From NCBI GenBank assembly GCA_000091205.1, contig AP006496.2: 64,000 nucleotides of DNA; one strand, 5' to 3'. The position numbers and the translations under genes are program-made. A model generated the notes under the pieces. That model saw nothing but the letters and a program-made list of their open reading frames with translations. It did no database searches and was not told the DNA's origin. Shown here in pieces: positions 1-30,748 of this stretch; the first letter of the stretch is position 1; each line of letters opens with the position of its first letter. Source of the DNA: Cyanidioschyzon merolae (taxonomy: Eukaryota).

Positions 1-1578
1 TGGCAGTGCAGAAGCAGCGTGTACCCGCTGTTGGGCAACCAACACAGCTCCTGGGCAGCTACAAGATCAGGCCAGATGCGCACCATCGCCCAGAGCGCCG
101 GATCGACCTCATCAGTCTCACCTCGGAGTCGTTCTTGATCGCTGCGGCTCAGCGAGTCAAGTAATCTCTCCACTGAGTAGAGACGGAAGAAGTGTTGCGC
201 AATCCGCAGATCCGAGACCACAACCGAAAGCGCCGCCAGGTCGGAGTCGGTCATGAGCATCCAGCCACCCAGCAATAGCCGCAGATGCTCGTCGAGTTCC
301 TCCGCGAGTCGCTCTCCCATGACGCTTTTCGGACTCGTGGAGGACTCCTGCTGGAGCAGGTCAACCCAATCGAGTACGGTCACGAGATGCTTTTGCATGA
401 ACGCAGGCGACGGGAGGAGCGCCTCCAGAACGCCACGAGCCAGGGAAGCGTTCCGCTCTTGCCCAGAGGTCGCAGGTGGAAGCGCTCGTTGCTCCTTCGC
501 CAGGTCACGGATTGCAGTATCGAGAAGATTTGATGCAGTAATGAACAAATTCAAAGCGATGAAAGAGGGATCGCCCAGGGTCTGCGGTACTTTCAGATGC
601 TCCGCAGCGCCACTGGATGCATCGGTTACCAGCCTCGACGATTTCTCTGGGCTCGTCATCCGTTCCTCTTGCGGTGCGCGTGCGGCTTTTCGGGCAGCAC
701 CAACCAAGTCATGCAAGCGCTCGCAGATGTATGCCTGCAGCGTCGGAAGCAGTTCGCCGCGCCTCTGCAGGCAGGCAAGCAAGTGCTTTGTCTCTGGGTG
801 CTCGCCATCACAGAGAAAAGTGACTGTCGAGAGCAGCTCTGCGAATACAGCTTCTGGCAATGCGGGCTGTTGCACAGTTACCCCAGCGGACGGCAATGAT
901 ATCGCGTTGAGGCGCTGTGAGCGCTGCGCCCGACACTCGTGGACAATGAGTTCCAGCAAGTCAACGCGGTCGAGACACGGTGATACTTGAAAGCAGACCG
1001 CATCTGTTGTCAAGTCGATCTTCAGCAGTGAGGCATAGAGCGTGAAGTCATTGAGCGCGAACAACTCCACTAGTTTTTTTGCAGCTTCTTGCCAGTCCGA
1101 GCGCTGCAGCAGCACCTCGTCGAGGCTTTGGGTATTCGGTGCGAGCACGGGGACGCTTTCAGCGTTAGGGCCAGGAGAGCGCCTCTGGGACAAAAGTTCA
1201 GCTGCAAAACAAGGACGTGTCGGTTGCTGTGGCGAACTCGACACCGAGCCCGTACACTCTGGAGCGTGACCATTGGTTACCGAAACCGTGCCGTTTTTGC
1301 ACCCTAGGGTTTCAGTCTTTTTCCGTTCGTCCGCGATAGCTGTGGGAAACTCCTGGGAACCACAGCGCAAGTGAACGTTACGAAGCGGATAACTTGCTTC
1401 TTTCCCAAAAAGCCGCAGCTTAATCCAGATCTCACCGTCACGTTCTCGAATGGATTGGACGGTGCCGCTCTCCCAGAGTCCTTCTGCGGTGCGTACCTCG
1501 ACGCAGCGACCTCGCTTCAGCCAAACTGGAAGCGCTACGGCAGCGTCAGTCGGGGTTGACGTTTTGCGCCCCAGCATC
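1..1578 (-). CDS. 3'-truncated gene (continues beyond window start); protein with N-terminal Tudor/chromo-barrel-like domain, >=525 aa in window
   Basis: I translated the reverse complement of 1-1578 by hand and spot-checked six segments against the plus strand. One frame is open from ATG (complement of 1576-1578, with an in-frame TAG just upstream at 1629-1631) all the way to position 1. The N-terminus is MLGRKTSTPTDAAVALPVWLKRGRCVEVRTAEGLWESGTVQSIRERDGEIWIKLRLFGKEASYPLRNVHL, a Tudor-knot-like pattern, followed by a long helical-looking region. It is absent from the ORF track, presumably because there is no stop codon inside the window. The three open plus-strand frames at 253-990 are its antisense. 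Confidence 0.5.
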
Positions 1579-2351
1579 AGGTGGGCCCGCGAGCATGAAG
1601 CAACCCACGAATACGTATACACAAACCGCTACTCTGGAGAGCGTCTCGTTAATCAGGACGCTGCAAAGGCACCCCAGGGATCTGCCGAGTCGATGTTCGA
1701 AAAGCCAAGGATAGAGTGGATTCCTGCGAGGCCGACGTACGCCTCAGCGTGTCGGGGCGTGGCGGAGCATAGCCACGTTTGGCGCCACTACCATGGAATG
1801 AAGCCAAAATCCAGCTCCTCCATGTGTCTCAGATTCGAGGAGATCATTGAACTGTTCGTTCTGTTTCCGATTTTGTATTTTTCAGCTCTTGTTTTAGTTG
1901 TACAGCCTTGACATTCAAAGCGTGGCGATGAGAGGTTAGGGATGCATACGTCGTTCTAGGATTCGTGGTTGAATTTGTTTTTCGGAATGGCACAGATGAC
2001 CCTCGATCACTGGAATCGGTTACGTCATGCGAATCGTGGTGATTCGCGGAAGCTCGCAAAGAATGGTTCGTAAAATGAGCGACAAAATTAATGGATTCAT
2101 CAATACGGGCCTCTATGAGTCTTTTCTTCTTACGTGTAGCATGTTCAAATCACGCATTCTTCAAGTTTTTTACGGTCTTCCTGGTCCACGGCAACTCGCG
2201 GGTGCAGCTGCTCGCGCGTCGCTCCGGATTACCGCGGATCAAATCGTACAGTCTTGCATTGACGACCGCTGTTCAAGCCTATCCCGAAAGTTGATGGAAC
2301 TTGGCAGGTCGAATAATCGATGCTGTCGAAAAACAAATTCTCCAGTCTTTC

Positions 2352-2960
2352 TGAATACCCACGAAACTGCATTCCATAGCAGTAGGATACCAGTCGCGGG
2401 ATCTGCTCGCAGCGGCTTCTGTCACTTCTCTTTGCACGGTAAAGCGCCCTGGACTCGCGCTTGCGTCATCGGGGCGATCGCTTCTGGCGGAGAATGCGTC
2501 AGCGCTTTGCGTGAAGGCAGCGCTGTCGGATCGGAGTTTCTCGACTTGATTTCCATCCCGGATTTTCGTCCCGTTCATTGTTTCATCATGAACAACATCG
2601 CGTTCCGACAATCCTCCATGGAATGGAACAGCGTGCGCTTGCGTGCGCAGCTGACGGAAGACTCTCCGAGGATATCTCGCAGATAGAGCTTGTGATCCTG
2701 GGGTACAGCACCGAGCGCGGAAACGGAGTAAAGCATGTAGGGAAACCTTCTCTACCCGTCCAGGGCACGTACCGTGCAGTGAAACATGCGCTCATGTGCC
2801 AGAGAACGGCCGTTGGTAGAGAAAGTATTGCGGATACATTTGGGCACTTGACCTCCACCGAGTGTCACTGCTGCGCAGGACACACCGAGGGTACCATGCA
2901 AAGAAGAAGGCGATGGGAAAAGGATCGCAGATCTCAGCTTCCGTCCGCGCAAGCGATGCA
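2352..2960 (+). repeat. Copy of unclassified dispersed repeat family R1 (~0.6 kb)
   Basis: Nucleotide-level alignment to the 19.3-19.9 kb, 9.3-9.7 kb (minus strand), 27.05-27.34 kb and inverted-repeat-arm copies. Shared blocks include aaactgcattc near the 5' end, ggagaa(t/c)gcgtcagcgct, cccggatt, ccatggaatgg and (a/g)agtgtcac. Translated similarities between the overlapping ORFs 2027..2686 and 2578..3039 follow from this DNA homology. Confidence 0.5.
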
Positions 2961-4548
2961 TTCCTACCAACCGAACGTGGCGAAACTGGGGCTTGATCGC
3001 TGCGATCAAGCCTCAGTTTCTGCTGCTCTGCAAGGATGAAAAAATAGCTTGAACGTTGCGGTCGTCTACAAAGTGCCAAGTTGCTTCCTGCAGGCACAGC
3101 ATCTAAAACTTTGCATAGAGTACTGACCAGCGCGCTGAACCCGGCAAATGTTCCTGCAGCAGCGCTCCGCGCGGAATCGATACACAGCCGCACGCCATTC
3201 GCCTGCTACTGCGCCTAACCTTCGACCAGAGCAGTGTGTCTATTGTTCGCATGCGAATCACTGCTCGCAGACGGAGAACCTGGTGCAGCATCCCGACTGG
3301 AATCGACGGTCGGACTGCGCGGTGCTGAACCTGCGGGTACAATTTTGTCCGTACATACAGTCCATGGACAAAGCGCGTGTCGTGGAGCGTGCGAGCGCCT
3401 TGACGCCGTCGCGCGCTGGCGAATCAACGTATCCGTTCGTAGGGCTCGGTTGGCCCAGTTCGAGAGTGTTCACTACACGAGGCGAATCGCAGTCTCGGAC
3501 CAGTCGCTGCGTTCGCCAACGCTCGGCCTGGGAATCCGCAGCGACACTGCGACGCCATGCTGTCGCTGGAACGGAGGATCGTGTGGGCGGACCACTATCC
3601 CCGAATCAATGCTTGGATAACGGTAAAGAGGACTGGGAGGATTTGGTGCGCCATGTAGGCTTGCTTCCCGGATGCCGATAACCATCACATCATTGGGGAT
3701 CAGAGGTTAGATTCCAAAATCCTACACCATTAGGAATCACACTCGCGGTCCTGAGCACTTGGTAACCATCCGACACTCGGGGATTCCTCGTTAGATTCAA
3801 CAATGCTCTACCATGACGTCTTCCTATTGCTGGGTTCCGCCTGCGTTCGCCCGGGCGCCTCGCCGTGCTCCAGATGATCGATCATGGCGGAGCGTGCCAG
3901 CTGGAATCATCGCGAGGTATCGTGCCAGGCCCCAATATTACCTTGTGTGTCAAAGGCGGCACCGCGACGCGCACCAGCGACAGAGCCTGCAGCAAGAGAT
4001 TACTCTACGTGAGCTTCCGAGCTACGACACCTGATTTTCGCTGCAGTGCGATGCGAACACGCACGTGCGAGTGCGGGGTGTCGGACACGTGTCCTTCATC
4101 GATCGGTGAGGCGTCTCGCGCGGTGCACGCAGTGCGCTAAGTGAGCGTTCCTGGGAGATCAGGCAGGCATAAGACACGACGCGCGTGCCGCCGCTGAAGG
4201 GAAACGCGATCCTGATCTCTGGTGTGTTGTTCAGCTGTAAAAGTTGTATTCGCGCTGGAGTCGAACAAAAATATAGTTTTCAGTTCGTTTTTGTTTCAAA
4301 CTTCAAACAAGTCTAGTCAAATGTTTTTTCGCAGTATATAACAGAAGGGTTTAAAGAGCGTTCAAGAAATATAAAAATAAAAAAACGGAAAAAGGAACGC
4401 TATGAAAAAGCAAATGCACGATCCTGGAGGCCCAGGTTCGCCGGCTGCCAGAAAAAAATAGTGCCGAGTCCAGAAGAAAAGGAAGAGAAGAAGGACCGAA
4501 AGGCGGAGGTCCTACGTCGAAGGCGGCAAGAAAGACGACTGTACGACG

Positions 4549-5263
4549 AGATGGTGGTGAAAACCTTTCTTCTTGGACATATCAAGGATCCGTACAGGGA
4601 AAAGTTGCGAGACGCTATCGAAAAACGTGTTGCGTCATACTCCAAGAATATTATAAAGGCGTCGTCAGGACTGATGCATTTAGCAAGGGAGATGTACGAA
4701 GACGTCGCGAACATGGAAACGGTCGAGATTCCAGACGAGTTTTTCGACAAACCTTTATTCGTCAGCTGATGCTTGGCACAGGGGAAGTGCGGAGGGAAAA
4801 TGAGCGGGTGCGCGCCCTCCACGAAAAATATCCCTTTTACAGCTTCAATGGTACTCGATACAAGGGTGACCGGGGTATTTACGGCTACGGGGCGATGAAG
4901 TACCCCACGAACCTGAAGAACCATTTGACAGAGAACTTCGAACGTTTCATGGTACGCGCCGTGTTTGCGCTGTATCCGGACATCTCTCGCAATGGAAAAT
5001 GGGCGATGATCAACGGCATCACGAGCGATCGCAAGCATGAAGATGAGGTCGAATTTGTCGACAAGAAAGCGCCAAACGAGAACACGAATGAAGCTTCTGT
5101 AATCCGTGCGGTTATACAAGAGCATCGTGCGGTACTGGGGCTGGCGTATCCAACAGACAAGATATCAGCGTTGAAAAAGATAAGGAAAGATACTATCGCC
5201 TCATCCTGCGATATTTCGTGTTTCTGGACCGAGAGCTCGAACGCAAGGCAGAAACGAAGCTAA
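4549..5263 (+). CDS. Element ORF1 (about 240 aa if read from the first ATG across the frameshift; also the ORF-track pieces 4461..4769 and 4769..5263); K/R/E-rich NLS-like N-terminus; function unknown; frameshifted in copy A
   Basis: It is conserved with copy B: ...IKASSGLMHL..., ...GDRGIYGYGAMKYPTNLKN..., ...RNGKWAMINGITSDRKHED.... In copy B the region is a single frame. Copy A has lost one nucleotide near 4752 (A: aaacctttattcg; B: aagaccttttttcgc), which gives the TGA at 4767 and the frame switch. The first in-frame ATG is 4549 (MVVKTFLLG). The tracker start at 4461 is a GTG. Confidence 0.3.
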
Positions 5264-6618
5264 GTGAAGGAAAAAATGAAGAGTGGGAGAGACGGAAGGC
5301 TGCCCTAATGGGGAAGCGCTTCGATGTGGTTCCAGTGTGCAAGATCAAGTCACATTTTGTGACTATCGACTCCGGCGTCCTCTACGGCATCATGAGGGAC
5401 ATCAGTCCGGAGTTCAGTGTCAGCAGGGAGAACTTCACCGGCGAAAACCGGGAGACGTACTTGAAGAACATCTCCAATTTCAAACGTCTGAGAGTGAACA
5501 AGCAAAAGTTGTTCACTGGGATGATCGAAACCGATGGAGTAGCCTTGTGTGTACACTATCGGCGGTTGAAGAAAGATCGGCCAGTTCCGCCCTCGGCTGC
5601 GCCCGTGACGAAGGGTGCAGAAAAGAAAGAGGCGGATCCTGAGACGCAGGAGGTGGAGGATAACGACTTTGTCGTTGAAGTGACGAAGGATGAAGATGAG
5701 AAGGAGGCGGATCCTGCGACACAGAAGGTGCAAGATAACGACCTTGTCGTTGATGCGGCGAAGGATGAAGATGAGAAGGAGGCGGATCCTGAGACGCAGG
5801 AGGTGGAGGATAACGACTTTGTCGTTTGCGCGGACCCTGGGAACACGAATATCATCACCATCGCAGCACCGAAGCGTGCGGAAGATGGTACTGATGGTAA
5901 CGTACGTCAGAAAGACATGCGAGTTTTGAGGATCTCGAGAGCGAGATACTATCGAGAATCGGGAATAATGAATGCGAGGAAGAAAATTGCTACATGGAAT
6001 GCAGGAATGAAGGATCACCTGGAAGCTTTGAGTGAGGTGACTAGCCGAAGAGCGGACTTTCAAGCTTTTCGGAAATTCATGGAAGTTTGCATTGTCCATT
6101 GGGATGCACTGTGGGAGGAGTATACCAAGGCCCGGTGGGCTCGTTTGCGTATGAATTTGTATTGTGGGAAGCAGCGGGGGTTCGCGAATTTATTCAATAA
6201 CTTGAGCGCCTTGAAGGAGGATGAAAATCAGAGGCTCGTCGTAGCATACGGAGCAGGGCGCTGGAAGACCCAAAAAGGGACTACTCCAGCTCCAACGACA
6301 AGAACATACAGGGAGTGCGCACGGCGTTTCGTTACGATACCTGTAGATGAGTTCCGAACGTCCTATGCACACCATGAACTGGGTTGTACACTTCAGAGAG
6401 TCGAGATGGAAAAGTGCCAGAGGAGCGCTGAGGAAATAGCAAAGTACGGACCGCTGACGGAGGCGCAAACGGAAAGGAGTGCGAAAGTTCGTGGACTACT
6501 CGCTTTAGTGAGTATAACTCCGGACGGGAAGAAACGTATGGAGTTTGTGAACCGAGATTTTAATGCCGCAATCAATCTACGGAAATGTGCGGTACTGGAC
6601 AAGAGACCTCCAGAGTAG
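5218..6618 (+). CDS. TnpB-like RuvC nuclease of a eukaryotic OMEGA (Fanzor-type) system, 466 aa
   Basis: Motifs in order along the protein: [15 protein letters not shown] (RuvC-I, Asp ~205); [20 protein letters not shown]...EKC (TS motif plus a degenerate H/C zinc knuckle); [18 protein letters not shown] (RuvC-III, the RDxNAAxNI hallmark of TnpB, Cas12 and Fanzor). The canonical RuvC-II Glu is not obvious; the expected position reads RLVVAYGAG. The start codon is uncertain: the tracker uses a GTG, and the frame stays open further upstream. Confidence 0.7.
5619..5830 (+). repeat. 75-bp (25-aa) acidic tandem repeat x~2.8 inside ORF2
   Basis: The unit gaggcggatcct...gatgaagatgagaag recurs at 5619, 5694 and 5769, encoding [25 protein letters not shown]. 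Copy B has a single unit. Confidence 0.85.
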
Positions 6619-6843
6619 ACAAGAGAGAACTTTATTGGACAACCTCTCAAAGTCGAACTATATGAGAAAATGTTGGAAGCAGTAGTGGGTGGCCGGTCCA
6701 AAAAGACGGGCAGGCGTCTGCACATCAGTCAGAGACGATTTGTCTAAGGCGCGTTCGCCGCCATTACTGTACGCCGCCGACGTCGTTCGACTCTCGAAAG
6801 GCGTTTAGTCGTGGCGACAAGTCTGCAGTTCCAGTTGCAAGCA

Positions 6844-7122: not shown

Positions 7123-9269
7123 GGCTGTTCGGAGAAGGACAACGAGCACTGGGTGGCGTCTTGGATGAAAGTCGGCGAGGATGTGTCTAGTTCAAGGCGA
7201 ATGCGGCCTGTGCTGGGAGCACTAGCTAATTCGTATCGCCTACGCGCGGTTCGCTTGGTAATGAACGCCACGAGATAGCAGCGTGAGGTATGCAGCGCGT
7301 TCGACACCCAACGAGAGTGCTCCGAGTGAGCGCGCGCGACCTCTCGAGCTTGTACTGTGGGCACTTGTCGAATTGATATTCGGAGTGGCACGCCGCCACG
7401 CGCATCACTTGGAGATTACTGGTCCTGTGTGGTGATACGTTTCGCATGCCGCTTTGAGTGTAGCGTGCGCCTGTCGAGCGTCCACCGTTCGTAAGGTGTT
7501 GCGCGAGATAAGAGTCCCGCGCATTCCGCCCGCTAGAGCTTGATTATCCGATGATACATGAACGACTAGCTTGTCGAAACGTTAGCGGTAAAGAAGCGAG
7601 TATCTAGCGTACAAGACGCGTGTAGCTTTTCGCTCCTAAACACTGTACGCAGTAAAGAGCGCACGGCTTGGTGTCAGTCTCGAGCGCATGAACGACCACA
7701 GTGTTCTTCGATGGTTTGTGTAAAACTGGGCCCGCCTGAAAGGACAGCGATCTACGACACGATTAGCATCCGCGGACGCCTGGTCAGAGCGATCGGGATG
7801 CCTGTGGAAACGCGTACTTGCCGACGTTTGCAGGCGCTCACGGGCGGCCTCGGTGGCAGGGGCGAAGATCGAGCCCCTGCATCGATGATGCGTCATGCTT
7901 CTCTGCAGACGATTTAGATGCAGTCAAATGGGACTCGGCATCGAAACTGTCGTTACCTGCTGACTAGGTTGCCACAGCACGTAAGCAAACCTGCCGGCAA
8001 CCCCGGTGTGCGCCTTGCCGCGAGTGCTCACTTTTGAATGACTGCTGCGAGCCTGTGTTCGCTACAGGGCGCGACTACCCAGAGTCGCCCGGCACCAGTG
8101 CGTGTGCTCGTGACGACAGCAGCGCTGAACGCAGGTGATTGAGATTTGCTTACCTACCGGCTCGCTGAGCACATCGATTCACTGGACATGCGCGAACGAA
8201 GAGCTTTTCACGTGAAGCTACCATATCTCCCTGAGCGGATATGGCTTTCTGTCTGGACTGTGCAGAGGCAGCGGCGCCAAGTACGTTGCACTCGGATGCT
8301 CGCACGCTGCTGTTGCAACGCTGCAGGCACGCCAGAACTGCCACTACGGAGATACAGCATGCGATGCGCGGTTCTCGATACGTCCGATGATGACGCAGTT
8401 GTAGGTATCGCCCAGAACACGTGGTGGCTTTCCGAGCTCAGTCCATCGTCATGCTCCAGTGCGCATGGATTATCATGCAGCCGGGAGCCATAAAATGGAG
8501 CGCGAGACTGCGATGAACGCTTGCTACAGTGCTGAATGTGTTGCCACTGTCGCCGCACGGAAACAGCGCAAGTCGTCGTGTCGATGCTGGGGCCCACACG
8601 AAAGGCCGGATCGTAATGCGAGCGAGCGCAGCCCCGCGTTAGATGGTTAAACACATGTCAGACTAGAATGGAACAGGTACACTATCTCGGCTGCGCACTC
8701 TCAAGCCTGGACATGTCGTCAAGGTCATCAATATTAGCCGTCGTGGGCTTTTTCAGCAACAGCTTCCTCTTACCCTCCATAAACTCCGGCATTCAATTCG
8801 CTGGCCTCTTGCGTCCTTCCCGTTTCGTTGTTTGCTGTCGATTGATGCTGATGCCAGCCATACTGTGCCGATATCGCTGCTTCCGTCTGGTGTCAACGTA
8901 TTTCGTGCACAGACGCAAGTTGCGATCCAAATTCGTTTGTCTGTTGCACCCACTATGTCTAGTGCACCGGTGCACCCTGCGCAGCGATGTCCATTGACTG
9001 CAGTCAGATACGCAGATATGTCCACAGCGCCTACTTCTCCAAGTGCCACGCTGGGGCGCGTGAACGCTCGCTTCGTCCATTGGTGCTCGTCGGCGACGTG
9101 TAGAGAGGGCCTAACTGTTTGCGCTTATCTGTTTTCATGCCCAATACCGTACCCTGCGCTCACGGGCCTCTTCGGGGTGTTACCCAAAGCGAACTTGGTG
9201 CACGTCGCACACGCAAGCGATCGCTCTTCCATTCTTTTGAGGATTTGTGGAAATCGATTTTGTTCATAG

Positions 9270-9720
9270 TAGAGAGAGTTTCGGAAGGAAATGCACGCTG
9301 ATCAACAAGATATGAAATTTTGATCCGTCTTCACTTCCTTCGTGCAGAGCGCCGATGCATGATCCACGGGAAGCGATCCCAGCGATGACTAGAGTCCCAG
9401 GCCAAGACCTTTTTCCACGCAAAAAGAAGAAACGGGAGCCACTGGGAAGTTTCCTCCTGAGAGGGATCATATTGGTGCTGTCGAATCCGGCCTCGTCGAT
9501 AGACATGAGCGGAGGCGAATTTGCCTTTGTAACGAAATCGAGTATTGCACTCGAGCAGTTCAGTGAACATTCAGCAGGAGCGCGTGAACAGAACATCAAC
9601 GGACAATGTCGAGCTTTTCCCTTTCGTATTGCTGGCCCCACACCTTGCCTCGAAACGGAAAGATCAGAACCATGAAGAATATGTGATTTGAGAATGCAAA
9701 CTGTAGGAAAACGAGAAGAC
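9270..9720 (-). repeat. R1 dispersed repeat copy (reverse orientation)
   Basis: The reverse complement aligns to the 2.4 kb and 19.4 kb copies, for example ...gcatcggcgctctgcacgaaggaagtgaagacggatcaaaa... against ...gcgtcaccggtttgcacgaagaaagcccagacggttcgcc.... It explains ORF 9264..9641. Confidence 0.45.
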
Positions 9721-10199
9721 TCGAAACCTATAGATATGCACTGGATTCAAAAGTCGGTCAGCGGGGGAACCCATGTTCGAGGGCGTCGCGAATCATCTCG
9801 ATTCCGGTGCCATATCGAAATCCAGCGGCAAAATCCTTGGAGGAGCCATTCCGAATAACCAAAATCCACGAAAATCCTCGAACTCCATAGGAATTCGTAA
9901 CCTCTTTTCGCCGCTCTTTTCCATCTAGAGGCTATGCATCGAAAAATCCTTCGAAACGAAATCACAAGGCGGAAACAGCGCGAGCACTACGGTATTCCCT
10001 TTTCGTTCGACGCGCCCTTAGGGAAATACCCTACCGAGCGCGCAGCGCTGCGCTGCGCACGAGCACCAACGCACCAGAAAGCCTAGAGACGCACGGCGCG
10101 TCAAAGCGCCGTATACGATGCTATGCGCATCGCTGCACCACTCGTGGCGCTTTTCTGGTCTGGAGCCGAGGCACGAGGTGCACACTTCCGACCTCGAAG

Positions 10200-12348: not shown

Positions 12349-14409
12349 CTAGGCGTGGTAAATATCAGATCTAGCTGGCCCGCTCTCGCCATCATCGTCT
12401 CTGTCACTTTCGGTGTCCGACTCAGGATCGGCTGGGGAGTCTCGCTGACGTATTCCGCTACCGGCCCCGTCGAGAAAACTTGGCTCTAGAGTCGCAGACT
12501 CCGTTGCCTGCTCGAATGGATCGCTCTCGACGAGCTCAACCAGTGGACGTTGGTCCGGTGGCGGGGGCGGCGCGCGAATACGTTTGGTCAACGCTCGTGC
12601 CTCCTCTTCGGAAACCTGAAGCCATTCCCAGCGCGGTTTGAAAAGCGAGTCTATCGGGCGGCCCGCCTGCTCATAAGCTCTCTTCTCGGCGTCTAGAAGA
12701 CGATTCACGTAGGAGTTGGGTTGCAGCGCGTCCAGAGCACGTAGAAGCTCATCGTCATCATCGAGAATGATCGGATCAGACGCCAGTCGACAGAGGGCAG
12801 ACCGATTGCTTGGCCGTTCAACAAGCCCCTCTCCGAACGGGCTGTATTCTTTCTCGGGGCTATCGTCATCAATGAGCCGCAATCGCACGAGCAGTGCCCG
12901 AATCGGCGAGAAGCGTTGCCTTGCGCCCGGCGGCGAGCACTCTGCCAGGACCCTGTTCAGCGGATCCATCGAAAGCAGATCGTCTGGATCGTCGATTTTG
13001 GGGTGGTCCAGATCCGGCATTTTGGGAACCACAAAATTCAAGTAATAGAGGGCGTAGCAGAGATAAGCGACAATGGTACATGCCGCTACCACCAAGACGA
13101 TCTGGTGAAGCCCCTGTTCCAGCCATGCACCCAACCACAATGGGCGATGCCTTGCCAGCAGTGTGAGGCCCCAGCAACACGGATACTGCATGGCTACGAG
13201 TCCTGTACGAGGGCGCACAAGAGCACTGCAACGCAAGAGTATTGCCCACAGACATGATGCCGTGACGAGCCAGCGCCAGAGACAGAACGCGTGCACTAGT
13301 CGATTCTGGCGACCGCTGGCCATGATGCGTACCTCCTGATTCAGGTCTGGCCATTGCCACAGCGCCGGAATGGCCGCTGCCCGCGCCGAAATACCCACAA
13401 GCAGCCAAAAGATACCGATTTCGGTTAAGCCTCCTTGTATCCACGATGAGGTGAGAATGACGGGGTCGTGCACGAATGTGCATGCATTACCGATTGCGGC
13501 TGCTGAACCGAGCAGTGGCCAGACCATGAAAGCATACATCAAGAGGAGTCGCCGCACTGCATCGCTTGCGCGGTATCCTGGTAGACGCCGCGGATCAAAG
13601 CGCCGCGCCACTGGGGCGCTCAGAAAATCCCACGCGAGCAACACGACCGGTATCGCTACCATGATACACCCCGTCACCAGAAATGCGTCCAGTGTGGCAC
13701 CAATCGTCAGGGCTATAGCGTATCCGCCGGGTGTGCGGCTCGCAGCCCGCAGCAGGCTTCCCGCATGCCCTGTCACGGCGAGTAGCATTAGCACGAAGCC
13801 GAGCCGCCGTTTGAACCGGCGGACGCGTTTTCGATACAGACGGCGTTCGTCCATGTATGCAACCGCCTCGTCTCTGTCCCGAAAGCCGAGCCAGTTCAAA
13901 AAGAGGTTGTAGTCGAATTTTCTTTCCGCGGGTGCTGCTGATGGGTCTCTCGCGCCCAGCGTATCACTGAGATCCACGTCTTCCGGAATCGGCATACCAG
14001 GGAATATGCAGTGTTCCCGTAAACGATCTCGAAGCGACTGTCCTCGACGCCAGACGCGAGGCTCAATGTCCAAGAAATGTCGAACAAGCTCCGGCAGGAG
14101 CGGAGGGCCCGCAGTATCCAAGCCGAGTTCCTCTGCTTGCTCGAGCAGTGCGCTAAGCTTGGTTTGAGGTGGCAGCTTTTGATCACTGCCGGATTCGGGC
14201 CCAGATGAAGCGCAGGAACATAGTGCGTTTCTGTATGTGTGCCGCTGGCCGTTAGCGAGCCGCAGCTTCGCCAACCCGGGACCTGTTCGGTTCTTCGTGC
14301 GGCACGGCGACGCGGTTGCCGAACAAGCTAGCTGTGCGTGGCGTGACGGCAACGCCCTGGTAGCTCCAAAGCCGCTCGCTGGGCGTGCTACCCAGTTCGT
14401 CTGCCACAT
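12349..14409 (-). CDS. Hypothetical multi-pass membrane protein, 686 aa
   Basis: ATG start (complement of 14407-14409). There are at least 8 hydrophobic helices (LGFVLMLLAVTG, IMVAIPVVLLAW, FWLLVGISARAAAI, IVLVVAACTIVAYLCYALYYL and others). The C-terminal tail is acidic and proline-rich. I recognised no family. Confidence 0.55.
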   Translation of the reverse strand: MWQTNWVARPASGFGATRALPSRHAQLACSATASPCRTKNRTGPGLAKLRLANGQRHTYRNALCSCASSGPESGSDQKLPPQTKLSALLEQAEELGLDTAGPPLLPELVRHFLDIEPRVWRRGQSLRDRLREHCIFPGMPIPEDVDLSDTLGARDPSAAPAERKFDYNLFLNWLGFRDRDEAVAYMDERRLYRKRVRRFKRRLGFVLMLLAVTGHAGSLLRAASRTPGGYAIALTIGATLDAFLVTGCIMVAIPVVLLAWDFLSAPVARRFDPRRLPGYRASDAVRRLLLMYAFMVWPLLGSAAAIGNACTFVHDPVILTSSWIQGGLTEIGIFWLLVGISARAAAIPALWQWPDLNQEVRIMASGRQNRLVHAFCLWRWLVTASCLWAILLRCSALVRPRTGLVAMQYPCCWGLTLLARHRPLWLGAWLEQGLHQIVLVVAACTIVAYLCYALYYLNFVVPKMPDLDHPKIDDPDDLLSMDPLNRVLAECSPPGARQRFSPIRALLVRLRLIDDDSPEKEYSPFGEGLVERPSNRSALCRLASDPIILDDDDELLRALDALQPNSYVNRLLDAEKRAYEQAGRPIDSLFKPRWEWLQVSEEEARALTKRIRAPPPPPDQRPLVELVESDPFEQATESATLEPSFLDGAGSGIRQRDSPADPESDTESDRDDDGESGPARSDIYHA

Positions 14410-14568
14410 AAACCAACACTAGCAACCGCAGCGACAAACGCTTCCCCTAAAAGATGCTCTCGTTTTGGGAAACGCTCAGTGCTTGCCCGTGCGCAGGGCA
14501 AGCATTTATCTCGCGAACAGAGAAAGGAATAGCAAGCTGTCCCAGCACGCGCAGAGCAAGAGACTTGA

Positions 14569-15217
14569 GAGCACTGCGATGCAGCACTCTGGAAGATTCC
14601 ATGCGACATGTACTCGTGCACGCATCCGCGGGTGCACGCATTCTAGGACACGTGTATGTATGTGCATAGGCCTGCATGCACTTGATCCGTGCATCAAGAG
14701 CACTGCGATGCAGCACTCTGGAAGATTCCATGCGACATGTACTCGTGCACGCATCCGCAGGTGCACGCATTCTAGGACACGTGTATGTATGTGCATAGGC
14801 CTGCATGCACTTGATCCGTGCATCAAGAGCACTGCGATGCAGCACTCTGGAAGATTCCATGCGACATGTACTCGTGCACGCATCCGCGGGTGCACGCATT
14901 CTAGGACACGTGTATGTATGTGCATAGGCCTGCATGCACTTGATCCGTGCATCAAGAGCACTGCGATGCAGCACTCTGGAAGATTCCATGCGACATGTAC
15001 TCGTGCACGCATCCGCGGGTGCACGCATTCTAGGACACGTGTATGTATGTGCATAGGCCTGCATGCACTTGATCCGTGCATCAAGAGCACTGCGATGCAG
15101 CACTCTGGAAGATTCCATGCGACATGTACTCGTGCACGCATCCGCAGGTGCACGCATTCTAGGACACGTGTATGTATGTGCATAGGCCTGCATGCACTTG
15201 ATCCGTGCATCAAGAGC
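14569..15217 (+). repeat. 129-bp minisatellite x5
   Basis: The unit gagcactgcgatgcagcactctggaagattccatgcgacatgtactcgtgcacgcatccgc(g/a)ggtgcacgcattctaggacacgtgtatgtatgtgcataggcctgcatgcacttgatccgtgcatcaa starts at 14569, 14698, 14827, 14956 and 15085, and the array ends at ~15217. Its length is a multiple of 3 (43 codons). That explains the long overlapping ORFs 14447..15430, 14465..15391 and 14506..15213, which are not genes. Confidence 0.9.
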
Positions 15218-17601: not shown

Positions 17602-19299
17602 AGGTCGCTCTGTATTGCTAAAATAGCCGTCCGGAGATTGTGAACCCAATGCGCTTGCACGGGAATTCAGGCCGTGTACTGGAGGACAGTGCGTGGCATC
17701 GCTTGCAAGAGTACATTGCCTCGGCTAGGGCGTCGCTAGCGCCTTGCTGGTGCATGGTACGCACGATCGGTGCAAGTGACGTACATCGGCCGACAGCAAC
17801 GTAGCCCTGAAAGTGCAGTAGTTCGCGCGTCCTGCATATAGAGCGCTAGTCGGGAACCTCTCCTGTTATCGTATCTGGGTAGCGGATCGCTCCATACGCG
17901 TGTTCGTGGAAAGCACCTCTTCGAGATTCAGCGCTTCTTTCTGACAAAGGAGATGAGTCCGTTGCTTGCAATGGATGCCCAATGCTCTATGCGAAAAATT
18001 TGCAGGGATTTGCGTATGCGCGCGCTGGCGACCCATGTCCAGCACACTCCTATGCAAGACGACTTGCGTTCGTGTTTCAGACTAGTCCTGTATCAGGTAC
18101 AAAGGAGCAGCAGCGACAGCACTGCAACGTACTTGCCTCAGCGAACGGTTGTGGTCAGCGCAGAGCCTCAGTAACGACGCAACGAGTAACGATGACGCTA
18201 GTTTCTCGCGGTGGTGATTCGTTTGCTTCAGTACGGGCATACCGTAGCGAGCGGTTCAGTCGTAGTATCTGGTGATCTTCTCGCCAAGGCCCGAACAACT
18301 TCAGTCAAAGCACGTTGACTGTAATCTCTCTGAGCAGCTGCGCTTGCGGCATTCCTCGCGTCCATGGTAGTCTCTCAGTGCGTGCAACGCTTCTGGATTG
18401 CCTGCAACCGATATAACGTAGACGCTCGCGTCCTATCACCCGCCATGACCCAGACGTCTTCATACAAACGGAATCCTATCCTCATCATTGCGCTGCTTGT
18501 GCGGTTCCCGAACGCGGGGTCGTGTATTTTCCAAGTGCTGTTTCCGATGCCACGCTTTGCATGAGCTTGAGTGCCGACGCATTACTGTGTTGCTTCTTCC
18601 TGTCCCGTTAAGCATCGCTCGGGTGAATGCGAGCAGGTGGCTTTTGACCGACGCGTGTGCATATATGCGACGTTTCATGGTATAACGCGGGTCCGTCAGG
18701 TGCGCTGCCTATGCGTCAGCGCGCGTGACAAGTCAGCGCGTACCCGATAGACGATCCAGCTTCACCTGTGCGACATAAAAATGGAACACTGAACTGCTCG
18801 CTCTGTTCAAGCACCTTGATCATTTTTCCGAACTTGCTAAGATATGCGTACGCGGGATGCAAAGCCCAGCAATAGGGGCTTAGGAATGCATACGTAGTTT
18901 CCGGATTCTCGATCAGGGTTTCAAAGTTGAGTCTTCGACGCTTTGCCTTTGGCATTCGATGCGTCATCAGAATGATGATGATTCTCGAAGCACGTGAACA
19001 GGGCTTTGTAAAGTAATCGACATTATTGTCCACTGCATACGTACAAGTATTCAATCTTCTCATGCCCTGATGTGGAACATGCGCAAATCACGATTGCTTC
19101 GAGTTTTCGATTTTTCTGGTTCGAGGCAAGTCGTGGGCGCAGCCATGCGTATCGTTGCATTGACGACGAAAGAAGAAACGTGATGTTGTCCCGTAATGAC
19201 TTGTTCATACGCTCATGTCGAAATTTCATGAAACATGTCACTTCATTCGATGATAGACTTTGTTAGAAATACGAATACTCTAGTCTCTGTGGTCATCGA

Positions 19300-19870
19300 C
19301 GAAACTGCATTCGATACCTGCACAATACTTCTCATGGGATATGCTCCCAGAGGCTCCTATGTCTTCAGAGTGCGCCGAAAATCCGCTTGGGATCGGACTT
19401 ATCCTAGTGACCGCTTCCAGTCGAGAGGGCGTCACCGGTTTGCACGAAGAAAGCCCAGACGGTTCGCCAACCCTCGACTTGATCTCTAGCCCGGATTTTC
19501 ATTCTGGTACATGTTTCACTGTCGATAAAATCTGGTTCCGTCAATGCCTTATGGAATGGGAAAGCACGGGCTCGCGCGTGCGACGGACAGGGTACTCCTC
19601 CGGGGGATCACGCAGACGACGACTATATTCGCAGTACATTGCATCGGGTGCTTCGAGCGAGCAGGGCAAAGATGGAAGACGTCTGTGCCCGTCGAGTGCA
19701 GGTACCGAGCCGTGAAGCAAGTATTGGCGTACCATAGGCCGGACCTTGCAGGAGTCATTGTGATGAACATACGTGAAAACCTGACAACAATCAAGTGTCA
19801 CCTGAACAAGAGGCACACCGAGCTGTTTACAACGACAATGAGCATCGCAAGTGAGGTGTAGATCGAAACG
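19300..19870 (+). repeat. R1 dispersed repeat copy
   Basis: It aligns to the 2.35-2.96 kb copy along its full length (for example cgaaactgcattcgatacc; gacttgatctctagcccggattttc; ccttatggaatgggaaagc; aagtgtcacctgaacaag). It accounts for ORFs 19341..19715 and 19544..19861. Confidence 0.5.
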
Positions 19871-20589
19871 GCCCCCGCAATGCATAGAGTGATTTGATAA
19901 CAGATAGAATCAGGGGAATCGGGTCTTCAATGCCGTCATCGACATCCTTTGACTGCTGGCAACGGAGCTGGAGGCAAATGCAGAGACCGATGTATTCAAG
20001 GCGGAAGCGAAGCGCGACGAGAAGGAAGCATTCACGGAACCAGCCCACTTACGTTGGTATCGATGATACTGGGAGGAGGTCAGAGCTTTGGGGTGAACGC
20101 CCGAGTCAGACGACCCTTTCCATGTTACCCTACCATGGACTCAGGAAAACCTTCCAGTGACACGAATTCGAGGCAGGATCCCATTTCACGGATACTGTGT
20201 TCGCGAAGCAACGACGTACCGATTCGGGTCACATTCGAGTTTCTGCAAAGCCGAGAAAACGGCACCGATTGTATATAGGGTAACTAGAGATGCCATTGGT
20301 AGGTGCAGGCGTGCTCCAGAATCCAGGACACCAACGCTGGAGATAGATCACCATCTGGGCCTCCGATAAACCCGGCCGTAGGCCACAAAATTTTACCTTC
20401 CTCCAATTGTTCGCAATTCAGCTGCGTCTCGAAAGCGAGCACACATTGCATACAAACCTGCAATACTTGAACGGCGATATTGTATTCGCATCGCGAAGCG
20501 CGCGAGCACCAAGTCACTCGTTTCTGGCTGCGTACGTGTTTGTGTGCAGGTCTTCGGGGCACCAACCGAGCACGTACAAGCATTATACC

Positions 20590-22419: not shown

Positions 22420-23040
22420 CTCAGGTTCTTAGAGTCTTTCATTTGAATCGTGTTTCAATCCTCAAGTAAGTGTAATCAAGTGATTTTTCAGGGTTTGTAG
22501 CTGGAGCATTCAGAGTGTGTTCTTTTTAAAAAATAAACTTACGGGAATGGAAGTGAAGGATCCTGGAGGCCGTCATCGCCGGATGCCAGAGAAAAAGGAC
22601 GAAAATTTCGATCTTCTCGCCGACCATCGAGGGAGAAGTGCAAGTGACGAAGAAGAAGAAGAACAGGGTAGGTAGATGACAAAAGATGTTTGTCCGACAG
22701 GATGATGACGAGACTGTAGTCGAATAGAGGCCACGAGTTCTGGCAATCCTTGCGATGGTGAGTTCAACCAGAGGCAATGCACGCATGGAGATCGTGAACT
22801 TTGACTTTAACGCCACCATCAATACCAGACGATGTGTGGTGCTGAAGACGACTGCTGACGATATGAGGCCATCTATGTTTGTTGGGAAACCTCTCAGATG
22901 CGAAGTGTGCTAGGAGAAACTGAAAACGGCTGCAGGCGGCCAGTCAAAAAAGGCCGGGAGGCGTCTGAGAGGGAGTATATTTCTTTACACTCTATGGATC
23001 TACAGTTTTTTCGTTTCATTGAACACAAGGGTGCTTTTCC
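22420..23040 (+). mobile_element. Internally deleted (~0.6 kb) non-autonomous derivative of the Fanzor-family element, copy C
   Basis: Its 5' part (22444-22700) aligns to the leaders of A and B (ttgaatcgtgtttcaatcctcaagtaagtgtaatcaagtgattttt; ggatcctggaggcc...gccagagaaaaagg; gacgaagaagaagaagaac). Its 3' part (22780-22990) keeps a RuvC-III remnant, MEIVNFDFNATINT, and the conserved end block ggcggccagtcaaaaaaggccgggaggcgtctg. About 2 kb of internal sequence is missing. Confidence 0.55.
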
Positions 23041-25608: not shown

Positions 25609-27049
25609 CCTCGCTCTTGTCGAAGAACGCAGCAGACGCGCTGGTACACACCGGGTGCCCCTGAGAGCACCTACGCCTTCAAGCGGTTACACGAAGTAAG
25701 CCAGGAGTGTGTTCGTCGGGAAAAACGCACAGACATCTGCACTGCACCCAGGTTGTCTGAGAGGTACCTGGTTGCTGCGTAGCGCCCTTTCCACAGTCAC
25801 AAGAGCGGCTTGCCGCCTGCCGTCGCGACCAGCCATAGCGGGATAGGTGGCTGCTCAGATGCATCGGTGCCGTTTCCCTGCTCGAAACAGGATCGATAAC
25901 CAGAGAAGCGACTAGCGTTCGTTCGTGATCCCTTTCGCATTCCAATAGCTCCAGACCGGTTTTAGGCCTTGCGATAGAGCTTTGATCGATCCGGCGACTT
26001 TTTCTTGTTGCCAGTCTTCTGAGGATGCTCGTGGCGGTGCTGGATGTATCGTTGCCCAAGTTGCTGTAGAGAGCGCGCACGCGCGGGTACGTGGTACCTC
26101 TAGGGGCATCGATTCGAGATGCGCTGGTGATGCCCTCGATCAGCTGTGTTTCCCTCTTGGGAAGTGCATTTGTAAAGTTGGCCGGATTCCAACGCGTTCC
26201 ACGGGCTCCTGCGTCGCGATCAAAGTGCCGTAGATACGTTGAACCTCAGCAGTAGCAATGATAACAACACGCTGCATTCGAAGAGGTGAGCAACGCACCC
26301 AGGTTTTGGATGCGCAGCACAAGTGCTCGTTCCGATTCCATGGTATCGGGGCTTTGACGAAAGCTATCCCTTGGAACAAAGAGTCTTGACCCGGCGATGC
26401 CGAGATACATCCTCATTTGTCTGTGACGCAGTCCTGAAACCTTACTGGTATTCGCTGCCACCGGTTACCTACAGGCAGCGTTTGGCACTAGCAGACGCAG
26501 CCGCGGATGCACCCACCCTGCAAATATGATCTTTTTTTGACTGGCAGAACGTTTATAGGAACTGGGTGTCCGATTGTGCGATGTGGATCGGCAGCACAGA
26601 TGCAAACATCGTAGAGAGCGGCGACTTGGACGAGGCGCACTCTTCGACGAACGGTGAACAGGTGCGTGCAACAGCCATCTCACTACACTGTAAGAAAGAA
26701 ACGCACCAGGTGGAGTAACTTGGATGTAAAGAATAATGTATGGGTCTCTTTCCAAAGTCGTGAACAGCAGCCTGTTCGGAATTTTCGTGCGACTGTTTCG
26801 CTTTCCGGTCTGCGATATCCGATTTTTACTACGGGGTCTCTCCTTTCCTTCCAGCTCTGTTGCTCGCAGTCAAAGAATACTGATTTCAGCGTTAGGGTCC
26901 CGACTTCACTGCTTCGAGGTGTGGTCGACGCATATTGTCCCCAGTCGGAAGCTTCAATCTAAGCTTCAGCTGCCGTTTCGGTCCTCTGCCGTAGACAGCG
27001 ACGGTGCGCTCTTCGCATCGATAACCCTTGACTGTGCTTAGGGGTTGTT

Positions 27050-27340
27050 GTTCGTGCACCGCAACCACTCTTTCGACGGGGTCACCCTGGAGAATCCCGT
27101 GATCGTGGAATACTGTACCATGTGCGAAACGAAGCATGGCATCGAGACGAGCCTTGTGTACCCATCAACCGCATGCACCGAGCGATGCAGCAAGCGTTCA
27201 GGCGTCATAGACCGGACCTCGGACGCCGAGAAGCGGTGAACATACCCGACAATCTGACCATAGTCAAGTGTCACCGAGGCAAAATGCGCACCGATCAGTC
27301 TACAAATAAGATAAGAATGGCAAGCGAAGCGCACATTCCA
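27050..27340 (+). repeat. Partial (3' half) R1 dispersed repeat copy
   Basis: It aligns to the 3' halves of the other copies (aatcccgtgatcg; gcatcgagacgagcc; caagcgttcaggcg; catagtcaagtgtcaccgaggc). It explains ORF 27122..27466. Confidence 0.4.
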
Positions 27341-27890
27341 ACGACCACCTATGCATACCCTGTGTTGACAACAGCCAGAATTAGGGAAATCGCGACTTTC
27401 ATGCTATCATCAGCATCTTTTTCTGCGTATAACAATGCTGGGGCCAAGGAGAAACCTGCGAAATGAAAGCCGGAGTTAAGACAAAGGACAAGGGAGCATT
27501 CGCAGAACTTGCCCACAAATGCTTGTGCTGGTTACACGTAGAAAAGACCCAAACTTTAGTGTATACCCCGAGTTAGCCAGGCATCCCTGTTTCGGTCTTG
27601 TCTGACATGGATGTAGTATTCTGGAGTATCTACGCTCTGAATCCGAGCAGAGCGTTGCAAACTGTCAAACGAAAAAAATGTCGCCGTGTCAGAGCGCAAC
27701 CCCTGCCGGGGCGCGTGTCTCGCAGAGAGGGCGGCGCGAGCGCACTGCTTCCATTGGCGTGGCGTTTTCTCTACCACGTGTCTGAGCGCTTGCACGCACT
27801 GCATCCACCCTGCACTTTGCTGCACTTGTAGTGCTCGTTTTTCTTCGAATTGCAATGCGCTTTCTTTGTCCAAATAAGCTCTCGTTGCAA

Positions 27891-30149: not shown

Positions 30150-30565
30150 TGATCTCAGACCGGAGAAGAATATCTTATCATCCAGGATCGAGCATTGAGT
30201 GCACTTTTGATTACACAAGGAGCAATCGTGTAGCATTCACGGATTACATACCGCAATGCGTCTCCTTGCATATATCGTTCATCGGTAGAAGAATATCTTA
30301 TCATCCAGGATCGATCATTGAGTGCACTTTTGATTACACAAGGAGCAATCGTGTAGCATTCACGGATCACATATCGCAATGCGTCTCCTTGCATACATCG
30401 TTCATCGGTAGAAGAATATCTTATGATCCAGGATCGATCATTGAGTGCACTTTTGATTACACAAGGAGCAATCGTGTAGCATTCACGGATCACATACCGC
30501 AATGCGTCTCCTTGCATACATCGTTCATCGGTAGAAGAATATCTTATCATCCAGGATCGAGCATT
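30150..30565 (+). repeat. 123-bp minisatellite x~3.3
   Basis: The unit gaagaatatcttatcatccaggatcgagcattgagtgcacttttgattacacaaggagcaatcgtgtagcattcacggat(t/c)acataccgcaatgcgtctccttgcata(t/c)atcgttcatcggta starts at 30165, 30288, 30411 and 30534. Its length is a multiple of 3, which explains ORFs 30134..30688 and 30155..30550. Confidence 0.9.
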
Positions 30566-30748
30566 CCGTACTCAAGCGCCGTGTTCCCATGCCGCAGCGC
30601 GAAATGGCGTCGCTGCAGCGATCCGTCGGCGGGGCGCCCTTATAGCTGGATGAGCGCGCGCGGCCCGTCGTCGCGGACGTCTTGGTAATGCGGAGCGTTT
30701 CTCAGCGTTCTGTTGTGGAACAAGCAGGCACCTGTATCGGAACTTGTC

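Follow-up and report, generated by a model that had tools for sequence, protein, structure and literature searches.

Introduction

The closest described systems to the repeat treated here are Mariner elements that carry Fanzor1, which were reported from Pythium ultimum as PUl-1 and PUl-2, with terminal inverted repeats (TIRs) of 24-33 bp and TA duplications (Bao and Jurka, 2013; PMC3627910). The same survey lists no Mariner-Fanzor element for the red alga Cyanidioschyzon merolae and one Fanzor1 in white spot syndrome virus (WSSV); it describes CMe-1A, a Fanzor1 element of C. merolae, with ~150 copies, a length of 3,169 bp and no TIRs found (PMC3627910). Nozaki et al. (2007; PMC1955436) counted only 8 class II elements in this genome, 'closest to bacterial transposases' (E 0.071 to 6e-7), and 253 interspersed-repeat copies with a truncated open reading frame (ORF) weakly like WSV486 of WSSV; CMe-1A is probably this 253-copy repeat. 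Here we analyse R1, a dispersed repeat in a stretch of 64,000 nucleotides of C. merolae contig AP006496.2 (assembly GCA_000091205.1), hereafter the window. An earlier note, made from the letters of the window alone, had described R1 as a probably non-coding family. Our analysis indicates that R1 very probably consists of dead, non-autonomous IS630/Tc1/mariner-type elements, internal-deletion derivatives of a parent that carried Fanzor1.

The R1 lineage is like PUl-1 and PUl-2 in combining a DDE transposase of the IS630/Tc1/mariner superfamily with Fanzor1, and in its short TIRs (24-33 bp in the former, ~30 bp in an intact relative, L015, described below), its presumed TA target and its size of 3.2-3.8 kb. 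It differs in that R1 itself is a 1.38-kb deletion derivative, with ~60% of the transposase and the last ~130 Fanzor codons out of frame with each other, and in that its host is a red alga. With CMe-1A it shares the C. merolae genome and one protein superfamily, and both are old, diverged, intergenic and present in the window. R1, however, has a transposase part, terminal repeats and a CxxC..CxxC zinc ribbon that is largely lost in CMe-1, and it is more diverged (~57% pairwise identity, against ~74% for two CMe-1A copies here). The R1 DNA profile gave no match to the CMe-1A copies of the window, the protein similarity between the two reaches only E 0.003-0.02, and an early R1 alignment compared with the CMe-1A family by hhalign gave a weak result (7.5%).

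Ds elements derived from Ac and the precursors of MITEs (miniature inverted-repeat transposable elements) in Tc1/mariner families are non-autonomous DNA transposons formed by internal deletion. By analogy, R1 would resemble them in having kept its ends, lost its interior, been left with no active transposase and been amplified from one deleted master, whereas its deletion spans two genes and leaves a chimeric pseudo-ORF, and its 1.38 kb exceeds typical MITEs. The R1 tail shares with the TnpB/IscB OMEGA and Fanzor nucleases (Saito et al., 2023; SpuFz1, 8GKH) the RuvC-II Glu context, the zinc ribbon and the RuvC-III motif, but R1 has no WED, REC or RuvC-I, no intact frame and no detectable guide-RNA structure; judged from its sequence, it could not be a working nuclease. 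The repeat census of Rudenko and Korotkov (2024) and a 2025 paper on horizontal gene transfer hold nothing specific to the R1 family. R1 copies may already have been counted, as 'class II' elements (8) or as 'WSV486-like' ones (253), or may have a Repbase entry with a different name; R1 is set apart from CMe-1A at the DNA level and appears to be new, or at least not clearly described.

Two gene remnants in the R1 consensus

A consensus was made of seven copies, namely A, B, C, F, D1 and D2 of the window (Table 1) and an eighth-locus copy from metagenome contig L005. Its first part reads in one frame (...GMAPSTLCRWN...VSRQVVGAA...VFVAIDETAFDSSMIPVMGYAPRGSRLF...VIAAIASSGECVSALHEGSVDGSKFLDLI...CFIMDKIAFRQS) and can be identified as the N-terminal and catalytic portion of an IS630/Tc1/mariner-type DDE transposase. 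Homology to IS630/DDE_3 transposases is found with two kinds of model: Pfam DDE_3 is matched at E 5.9e-7 with 29.9 bits (cut-off 28.6), or at E 9.8e-6 with 25.9 bits once a short coincidental stretch is removed and the confirmed transposase-derived part is left, and the NCBIfam IS630 transposase model is matched at E 8.3e-6, reaching into the N-terminal region. The N-terminal part extends the IS630 match to positions 51-177 (E 0.012), and the N-terminal ~150 codons are in the transposase frame in all copies. Direct matches to helix-turn-helix (HTH) domains are weak, both on the consensus (HTH_Tnp_4, E 0.059) and on relatives (HTH_Tnp_Tc3_2 and HTH_33). A complete D-D-E/D triad in an intact ORF is absent from R1, where the homology stops ~10 codons past the second Asp.

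The second part lies one base out of frame (EQRALARAADRVLAEGITQKKPVIVGYGTGRGNG...PSLPVKGMYRAVKQAF...VVDIPEHLTAVKCHRCEG..., then a stop) and represents the last ~130 codons, with the RuvC-II, zinc-ribbon and RuvC-III regions, of a Fanzor1/TnpB-type nuclease. This tail matches the Pfam Cas12f1-like TNB domain (PF07282) at E 3.4e-8 with 34 bits (cut-off 26.3) and the NCBIfam models Cas12f2 (E 1.5e-5) and guided_TnpB (E 1.1e-3). The C-terminal motif of Fanzor1 was defined as [TS][TS]-x-x-C4 zinc finger-x(5,50)-RD (Bao and Jurka, 2013). Both this motif and the TNB domain are found in the consensus tail, in which the zinc finger HLTAVKCHRC...CMKC, followed by the RuvC-III motif, can be read directly. 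The Fanzor homology begins at 'EQRALARAAD', ~130 codons before the stop; the RuvC-I Asp and the N-terminal WED/REC half are absent from R1, and the RuvC-I 'LDPGR' of relatives (P0392, residue ~415) has no counterpart there.

In the consensus, the last base of the transposase motif IMDKIAFRQ is at about nt 840, and DNA homology to the Fanzor genes of contigs L013 and L015 begins exactly at nt 843, at GAATGGAACAGCGTGCGC = (M)EQRALA, which by sequence comparison pins the junction to ~10 nt. The window copies, metagenome contigs L005, L019 and L020, and 19 of the top 150 database fragments have this junction in common. The transposase is cut there ~10 codons past its second catalytic Asp and so lacks the third residue of the catalytic triad. 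In copy A the transposase part spans the HTH-like N-terminus and the DDE_3 core through 'FIMNNIAFRQS', with the second catalytic Asp changed to Asn, and the Fanzor tail is recovered by tblastn of the consensus tail at E 2e-21 and 1e-3. Individual copies and their ORFs have no Pfam match alone, and sequence searches of PDB with the R1 profile and the consensus parts gave nothing useful.

Two assignments were discarded on the way to this map. The four-copy consensus was read as a pure TnpB/Fanzor relic, with 'VFVAIDE' as RuvC-I, until the seven-copy consensus showed a DDE_3 transposase there. A junction at 'EYSPRVSP', taken for a PYSPxLNP motif, was also dropped, the resemblance being coincidental: DNA homology puts the junction ~35 codons upstream.

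With remnants of DDE_3 and TNB above the Pfam cut-offs, the description of R1 as a probably non-coding repeat has to be given up. The suggestion in the earlier note that it might be the end of a non-autonomous element came close but overlooked that it holds remnants of two protein genes. The blocks that the note saw shared among copies are real, and they can now be read as coding-motif remnants and the junction: aaactgcattc is (D)ETAF, gcgtcagcgct is ECVSAL, cccggatt is PDF, ccatggaatgg is the junction and agtgtcac holds the first Cys of the zinc ribbon.

Termini and target site

At most copy ends the boundary reads TA/CACCCATG...CATGGGTG/TA or differs from this by one substitution (a slash marks the element boundary; Table 1). 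After the 3' ends (...CATGGGTG) comes TA in 6 of 8 copies and CA in the other 2; at the 5' ends, TA/CA.. is read in 3 of 8, and the others deviate from it by one substitution. TA stands at 9 of 16 copy ends, the remaining ends being one substitution off; decay of an original TA by ~25% in each copy would give this proportion, so the pattern is consistent with a TA origin. Both the 3' ends and the 5' ends (CA.CC.TG...) agree with the initial ~15 nt of the L015 TIR, which is 30 nt long, and a profile made of the 5' ends picks out B, F and D1 at their 3' ends on the reverse strand, each time at the same position (E 0.004, 0.035 and 0.08). It is by the likeness to the L015 repeat and by these profile matches that terminal inverted repeats are recognised in R1.

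Intact relatives and the architecture of the parent

An exhaustive HMMER search of protein databases, with a profile made of translations from this window only, returned 567 proteins at E<=1e-3, of which 217 reach E<=1e-10, mostly short ORF fragments of other R1 copies. Among the best 150 representatives (mutually <=50% identical), 95 cover one profile position and 19 cross the junction; public data therefore hold at least ~95 distinct R1 copies. Some of the further copies are found in other host contexts, for example adjoining a nucleoporin gene in contig L020. A word-indexed protein search with the R1 alignment returned only ORFs of the window's own copies.

Intact proteins related to each of the two remnants exist. 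The transposases P0314 and P0332 score 102 and 89 bits on DDE_3 and have complete DETGF, MDNVAFH and NPIE motifs, and across transposases with DDE_3 scores of 89-105 bits the consensus gives matches of E 8e-26 to 4e-32. The proteins P0366, P0392 and P0377 (680-700 aa) score 32-34 bits on TNB (34 bits for P0366 and 32 bits for P0392, which fall within 682-698 aa), and their C-termini are closely like the R1 tail. By hhalign, P0392 aligns with the CMe-1 Fanzor1 family from RuvC-I (LDPGR/ADPGN) through RuvC-III (92.9% probability, E 3.6e-7), from which it follows that the R1 tail comes from a Fanzor1-type gene.

The two genes stand together in L015 (ENA ERZ27315610 k141_54156, 1-3718) and in its copy L016 (Logan assembly), where a DDE_3 gene (253 aa), a 29-bp gap and the gene of the 698-aa Fanzor P0392 follow each other on one strand. 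In L015, inverted repeats of 30 nt (232-261 and 3426-3455) enclose the pair, with TA on both sides: gc/TA/CACCCATGTCAGGTTATTTTGCAACACT ... AGTGTTGCAAAACACAGAGGCTTGGGTG/TA/ct (in short form, TA/CACCCATGTCAGG... and ...GGGTG/TA). Judged by its sequence, the whole is a Tc1/mariner-like element of 3.2 kb with TA as its insertion site. Its transposase is matched by the R1 consensus at E 8e-26 and its Fanzor tail at E 5e-29 (50% identity), and the distance in L015 that matches the R1 deletion is ~1.9 kb. This seemingly complete element (also L016 and L017; 50.5% GC) is a candidate active element or nuclease. The N-terminal HTH part of the L015 transposase lies in a separate frame, possibly owing to a frameshift or an intron.

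Other relatives have different neighbours. In two JGI metagenomes (3300035702 and 3300028368), Fanzor-like genes of 551 and 692 aa, close to the R1 tail, lie at L013 5569-7224 and L014 3330-5408; these contigs have 55% GC, and the genes adjoin RNA ligase, 2H-SAK and Peptidase_S74 genes. The context looks viral and would fit carriage of Fanzors between hosts by viruses. A database ORF, P0282 (342 aa), runs from a CMe-1A Fanzor C-terminus into the transposase part of an R1 copy, which places CMe-1A and R1 directly adjacent or nested somewhere in the genome.

Copies of R1 in the window

The window holds five full or nearly full R1 copies and two half copies, ~7.7 kb in total or ~12% of its length (Table 1). 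Self-BLASTN of the window pairs the copies at E 1e-9 to 1e-22 with default scoring, and with +1/-1 scoring the alignments are 1.0-1.4 kb long (E 1e-45 to 1e-80). A four-copy DNA profile gives E = 0 for the full or nearly full copies and 1.5e-66 and 4e-30 for the partial ones, and finds nothing further above noise in the 64 kb. The earlier note had already reported this repeat, and the self-comparison that it proposed as a check bears it out as real; all of the sites and orientations that it named hold, but its six copies become five and two halves. Its ~0.6-kb unit is the best-kept core of one over twice as long, ~1.38 kb (1,370-1,390 bp), so that the interval 2352-2960, from which it started, lies within copy A (nhmmer model positions 44-1237). 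Likewise, its identity of 65-75% is approached in the best local stretches only (66-67%), the overall value being 55-58% for every R1 pair (Kimura two-parameter distance, K2P, ~0.65) with 12-18 gap events per 1.3 kb. It was right that the copies all lie between recognisable genes, and that they form an old dispersed family that spawns misleading mid-size ORFs.

The copies are all mutually equidistant, and this includes D1 and D2, which abut head to head; an ORF of D1 is present in public data as P0122. Metagenome contigs L008-L011 hold an ortholog of copy A with 98-98.5% identity. Where copy A is truncated at its 3' end, in the region of the former RD motif, there is a 39-nt near-perfect palindrome (92%; 2982-3020), which may mark the rearrangement that took its 3' tail.

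Table 1. R1 copies and the features within them. Copy bounds were refined using terminal motifs.
Feature	Position	Strand	5' end	3' end	Remarks
Copy A	1818-3047	+	TC/CTCCATG		5' end present; last ~190 bp gone, including 3' terminal repeat
Copy A, transposase-derived part	1969-2615	+			tblastn of consensus transposase E 1.9e-59; mostly in ORF 2027-2686
Copy A, out-of-frame deletion junction	2610-2625	+			boundary of transposase and Fanzor remnants
Copy A, Fanzor/TnpB tail	2620-3007	+			RuvC-II region, degenerate zinc ribbon, decayed RD; two frames
Copy B	8650-10018	-	TA/AGGGCG	CTGACATGTGTT/TA	full length, 1,369 bp; TA at both ends
Copy C	18763-20145	+	TT/CACCTG		full length; 3' end less sharp
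Copy D2	26686-27078	-		ACAGTG/TA	5'-truncated; Fanzor tail and 3' end kept; nhmmer E 4e-30, tblastn
Copy D1	27072-27613	+		GTCTGACATGGATG/TA (also written ...CATGGATG/TA)	5'-truncated, begins just before junction; nhmmer E 1.5e-66
Copy E	51661-53052	-	GA/CACCCG	GGGTG/CA	full length; upstream of TPT transporter gene
Inverted-repeat arm in E	51661-52856				gene-converted 3' 1,196 bp of copy E
249-aa hybrid ORF in E	51825-52574	-			twin of the ORF in F
Copy F	55805-57192	+	TA/CGTACTG	GTCTGATATGGGTG/TA	full length; ends 44 bp before first ATG of SHMT frame
Inverted-repeat arm in F	55997-57192				gene-converted 3' 1,196 bp of copy F
249-aa hybrid ORF in F	56279-57028	+			
Copy G			TA/CATTCC	...CCG/TA	
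Copy H (L019)				CATGAG/TA	
Copy I (L020)				GGGTG/CA	

The 52/56-kb inverted repeat

Copies E and F make up an inverted repeat at 52 and 56 kb, the arms of which are 99.5% identical (51661-52856 against 57192-55997). On both sides the tract stops at the last base of the element, while the 5' ~190 bp of E and F are diverged like unrelated family members, with only a 55-bp stretch at 85% that aligns. The simplest explanation is gene conversion between the two inverted copies, which lie 3 kb apart. The uninterrupted 249-aa frame that the earlier note had seen in both arms does exist, but it is an accidental hybrid: a 1-nt deletion just past 'PDF' in E and F (alignment column 792) leads from the transposase frame into the Fanzor frame. 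The ORF has no Pfam match alone.

Two metagenome contigs (L002 and L004; JGI20133J14441) compared with 51661-57251 have an E-like 5' flank and an F-like body, one of them with a partial internal duplication, which suggests structural polymorphism or assembly chimeras at the inverted repeat. Between E and F, at 53757-54038 (+), a gene of 93 aa encodes an Hc1 domain, like histone H1 and of bacterial type (Pfam E 2.8e-15), and is kept at the equivalent position in Cyanidiococcus.

How the copies spread

One could ask whether the copies arose by transposition at all, or whether one chimeric pseudogene was spread by segmental duplication or ectopic recombination. Five to seven copies in 64 kb is denser than the likely genome average, the conversion between E and F shows recombination acting on copies, and D1 and D2 are a rearranged head-to-head pair. 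Such a spread is nevertheless very unlikely, as the similarity between copies ends at common terminal nucleotides with unrelated flanks, these ends match the inverted repeats of a bona fide element, and even the adjacent D1 and D2 are as distant from each other as any pair. The at least 95 mutually diverged public copies, some of them in other contexts such as that of the nucleoporin gene in L020, also argue against it.

The position of some copies raises the further option that they were recruited to serve the genes immediately downstream, as promoters or 5' regions, to which we give little credence. The SHMT frame begins 44 bp past the end of copy F, ORF 27855 begins 240 bp past that of D1, E lies upstream of TPT, and the near-identity of the E/F tract might be taken for constraint. 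However, these genes can do without R1, since in the syntenic region of Cyanidiococcus yangmingshanensis gene content and order are unchanged (phosphatase - EnY2 - TPT - Hc1 - SHMT - PIP5K) and R1 is absent; no downstream gene is placed in this way with respect to A, B or C; R1 has about double the variant density of coding sequence; and the likeness of E to F is explained by conversion. CMe-1A is missing from this syntenic region as well, which means that the insertions are specific to the Cyanidioschyzon lineage or were erased in Cyanidiococcus.

Decay and loss of coding

Every R1 copy has stops or frameshifts in both parts. Codon positions 1, 2 and 3 are equally conserved among the seven full copies, with identities of 0.58/0.59/0.58 for the transposase part and 0.56/0.58/0.57 for the Fanzor part, against 0.59 for the non-coding 5' part. 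From the flat codon positions, together with the stops and frameshifts, it follows that the copies evolved with no coding constraint since they were made. Compared with a metagenome strain that is 98-99% identical, R1 shows 7-13 differences per kb, SHMT and TPT coding sequence ~4 per kb and other intergenic DNA 1.6-23 per kb. The equal distance between all pairs fits one burst from one already-deleted master. R1 copies are neutral relics of one old burst, and appear to have no present function.

A few frames could still be taken for a living gene family, either a fusion protein or a truncated transposase under selection, for example as a DNA-binding regulator. Copy A has an ORF of 219 aa with an ATG (2027-2686) that spans the whole transposase remnant and recurs in a related strain as P0243, E and F retain their 249-aa ORF, and the other repeat family of C. 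merolae was reported to be transcribed (PMC1955436). We consider such a family extremely unlikely. The junction is out of frame in the consensus, all other copies carry several stops or frameshifts, the catalytic residues are mutated or deleted (MDK to MNN in copy A, with the third residue absent), and the codon-level conservation by which the earlier note would have recognised a gene family is not seen. P0243 itself differs from the ORF of copy A by four amino-acid changes (V>M, M>K, P>R and G>E) among ~11-16 nucleotide differences across copy A.

The view that R1 is intrinsically non-coding, as a solo long terminal repeat (LTR), a non-coding element end or a family of structured-RNA pseudogenes, is hardly credible, although no long frame other than the 249-aa ORF is intact, no three-base periodicity is seen and single ORFs have no Pfam match, because the consensus exceeds the cut-offs for two protein domains, hundreds of protein-level relatives exist, intact transposases and Fanzors among them, the ends are CAC..GTG with flanking TA around DNA-transposon genes and not the TG..CA that the earlier note proposed to look for (C. 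merolae is reported to have no LTR retrotransposons; PMC1955436), and the Rfam check that it also proposed found no match in the window. That Rfam search was made at gathering thresholds, and no tRNA was found either; the 232-nt 3' consensus folds no better than shuffled sequences (z = +0.31), which is a weak test since the consensus of decayed copies is imperfect. What remains of the non-coding description is that the copies no longer code. Because real database proteins match both parts independently, the domain matches are unlikely to be an artefact of consensus building. A leishmanial SIDER-type retroposon was also considered, and was dropped once the host was known not to be a trypanosomatid.

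Proposed origin of R1

The internal-deletion reading, which we hold with high confidence, is drawn from both domain homologies, the shared out-of-frame junction and termini, the two-gene relatives, the equidistance of copies, the absent coding constraint and the conversion tract. In this scenario the ancestor would have been an autonomous element of ~3.2 kb, with ~30-bp TIRs starting CACCCATG, that inserted at TA and carried two tandem genes on one strand, a DDE_3 transposase and then a Fanzor1-type (TnpB-like, RuvC and zinc-ribbon) nuclease. One internal deletion of ~1.9 kb would have removed the transposase from ~10 codons past the second catalytic Asp and the Fanzor up to ~130 codons before its stop. 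Joined out of frame, the remnants would give a 1.38-kb element that keeps both ends and from which neither protein could be made. This deleted element would then have spread through the genome in one burst, full-length relatives presumably supplying transposase in trans at TA sites, with the TA duplicated on insertion. All copies would afterwards have decayed neutrally to ~57% pairwise identity, and E and F, inverted and 3 kb apart, would later have homogenised their 3' 1.2 kb by gene conversion, leaving the inverted repeat.

Several points weigh against this scenario. The consensus ends compared with each other are not significant, as only a 10-nt inverted match is found and internal controls do equally well, and the putative TA duplication and exact termini rest on a sequence pattern in very diverged copies. 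The intact composites, at 30-50% protein identity to R1 and 50.5% GC, are relatives and not the actual parent; no autonomous copy was found in the window or in the same-species contigs examined. The number of gaps is below what neutral DNA would be expected to show at K ~0.65, which may partly be an effect of the alignment. As single copies have no Pfam match, R1 can be classified only through its consensus and through searches with profiles.

The guide RNA of TnpB and Fanzor systems is encoded at the 3' end of the gene or in the region downstream of it. What R1 retained, namely both terminal repeats, the Fanzor 3' end and ~190 bp beyond, would be exactly what a hitch-hiker on a Fanzor-carrying element requires. 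It may be asked, as an unlikely extension of the internal-deletion reading, whether R1 was a guide-RNA-carrying parasite of the full element, mobilised by the transposase and protected or homed by the Fanzor, both in trans. The fold of the 3' consensus given above is the test that bears on this, covariation being unusable on neutrally decayed copies. If true, it could explain how a deleted master out-multiplied its parent to at least ~95 copies, and as a corollary the class II content of this 'simplest' eukaryotic genome would be much under-counted.

For annotation, R1 accounts for the misleading ORFs of 100-250 aa and for the 52/56-kb inverted repeat. Much of the intergenic DNA here is decayed DNA-transposon sequence, in a genome known for 'only eight class II elements' and published as 0.7% transposons and 5% repeats. 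The Fanzor field gains a red-alga Tc1/mariner-Fanzor1 lineage, a clean two-gene internal-deletion derivative, and intact relatives of 680-700 aa with transposase and terminal repeats in public assemblies, some intact relatives being in virus-like contigs and from a like hot, acidic habitat. R1 leaves the current understanding of how such elements work unchanged.

Genomic setting and other repeats

The window has ~55% G+C and long intron-free genes on both strands, among them those for an ABC transporter, a dual-specificity phosphatase, PIP5K, a BT1 transporter, SHMT, a TPT transporter, TRAPP, an OBG-type GTPase, EnY2 and Hc1. Scoring by codon usage discriminated too poorly between genuine genes and spurious ORFs to be of use. 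For SHMT, identity is 89% with Cyanidiococcus yangmingshanensis and 81% with Cyanidium caldarium, and contigs from hot-spring metagenomes are 98-99.6% identical to the window across kilobases.

Relics of CMe-1A take up ~10% of the window, and together with R1 they reach ~22%. The copy at 4158-6776 includes an apparently intact ORF of 466 aa (5218-6618, +), nearly identical to the published CMe-1 protein, that matches the C-terminal two-thirds of the 734-aa CMe-1 consensus; longer homologues have 560-750 aa, and 172 relatives of the ORF are found in hot-spring metagenomes. Searches of PDB with this ORF and with P0392 gave nothing useful, the sole exception being a weak match (E 0.3) of the CMe-1A family profile to the Spizellomyces Fanzor1 SpuFz1 (8gkh). 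Within the ORF, at 5605-5826, a 75-bp (25-codon) unit that encodes an acidic stretch is repeated in tandem and in frame in 3 copies, where the published consensus has one. A 2.5-kb relic at 42669-45125 is frameshifted and 74% identical to the copy at 4158-6776, a more decayed one lies at 48254-49137 (tblastn E 1e-16), and a CMe-1A fragment at 22435-22967.

Two tandem arrays were also observed. One, at 14568-15217, has 5.0 copies of a 129-bp unit that are 99% identical; it is flanked by the gene at 12349-14409 (-) and by the BT1 gene, and gives rise to overlapping spurious ORFs on both strands. The other, at 30164-30565, has 3.3 copies of a 123-bp unit that are 97% identical, and stands directly upstream of the aminotransferase gene at 30713-32173.

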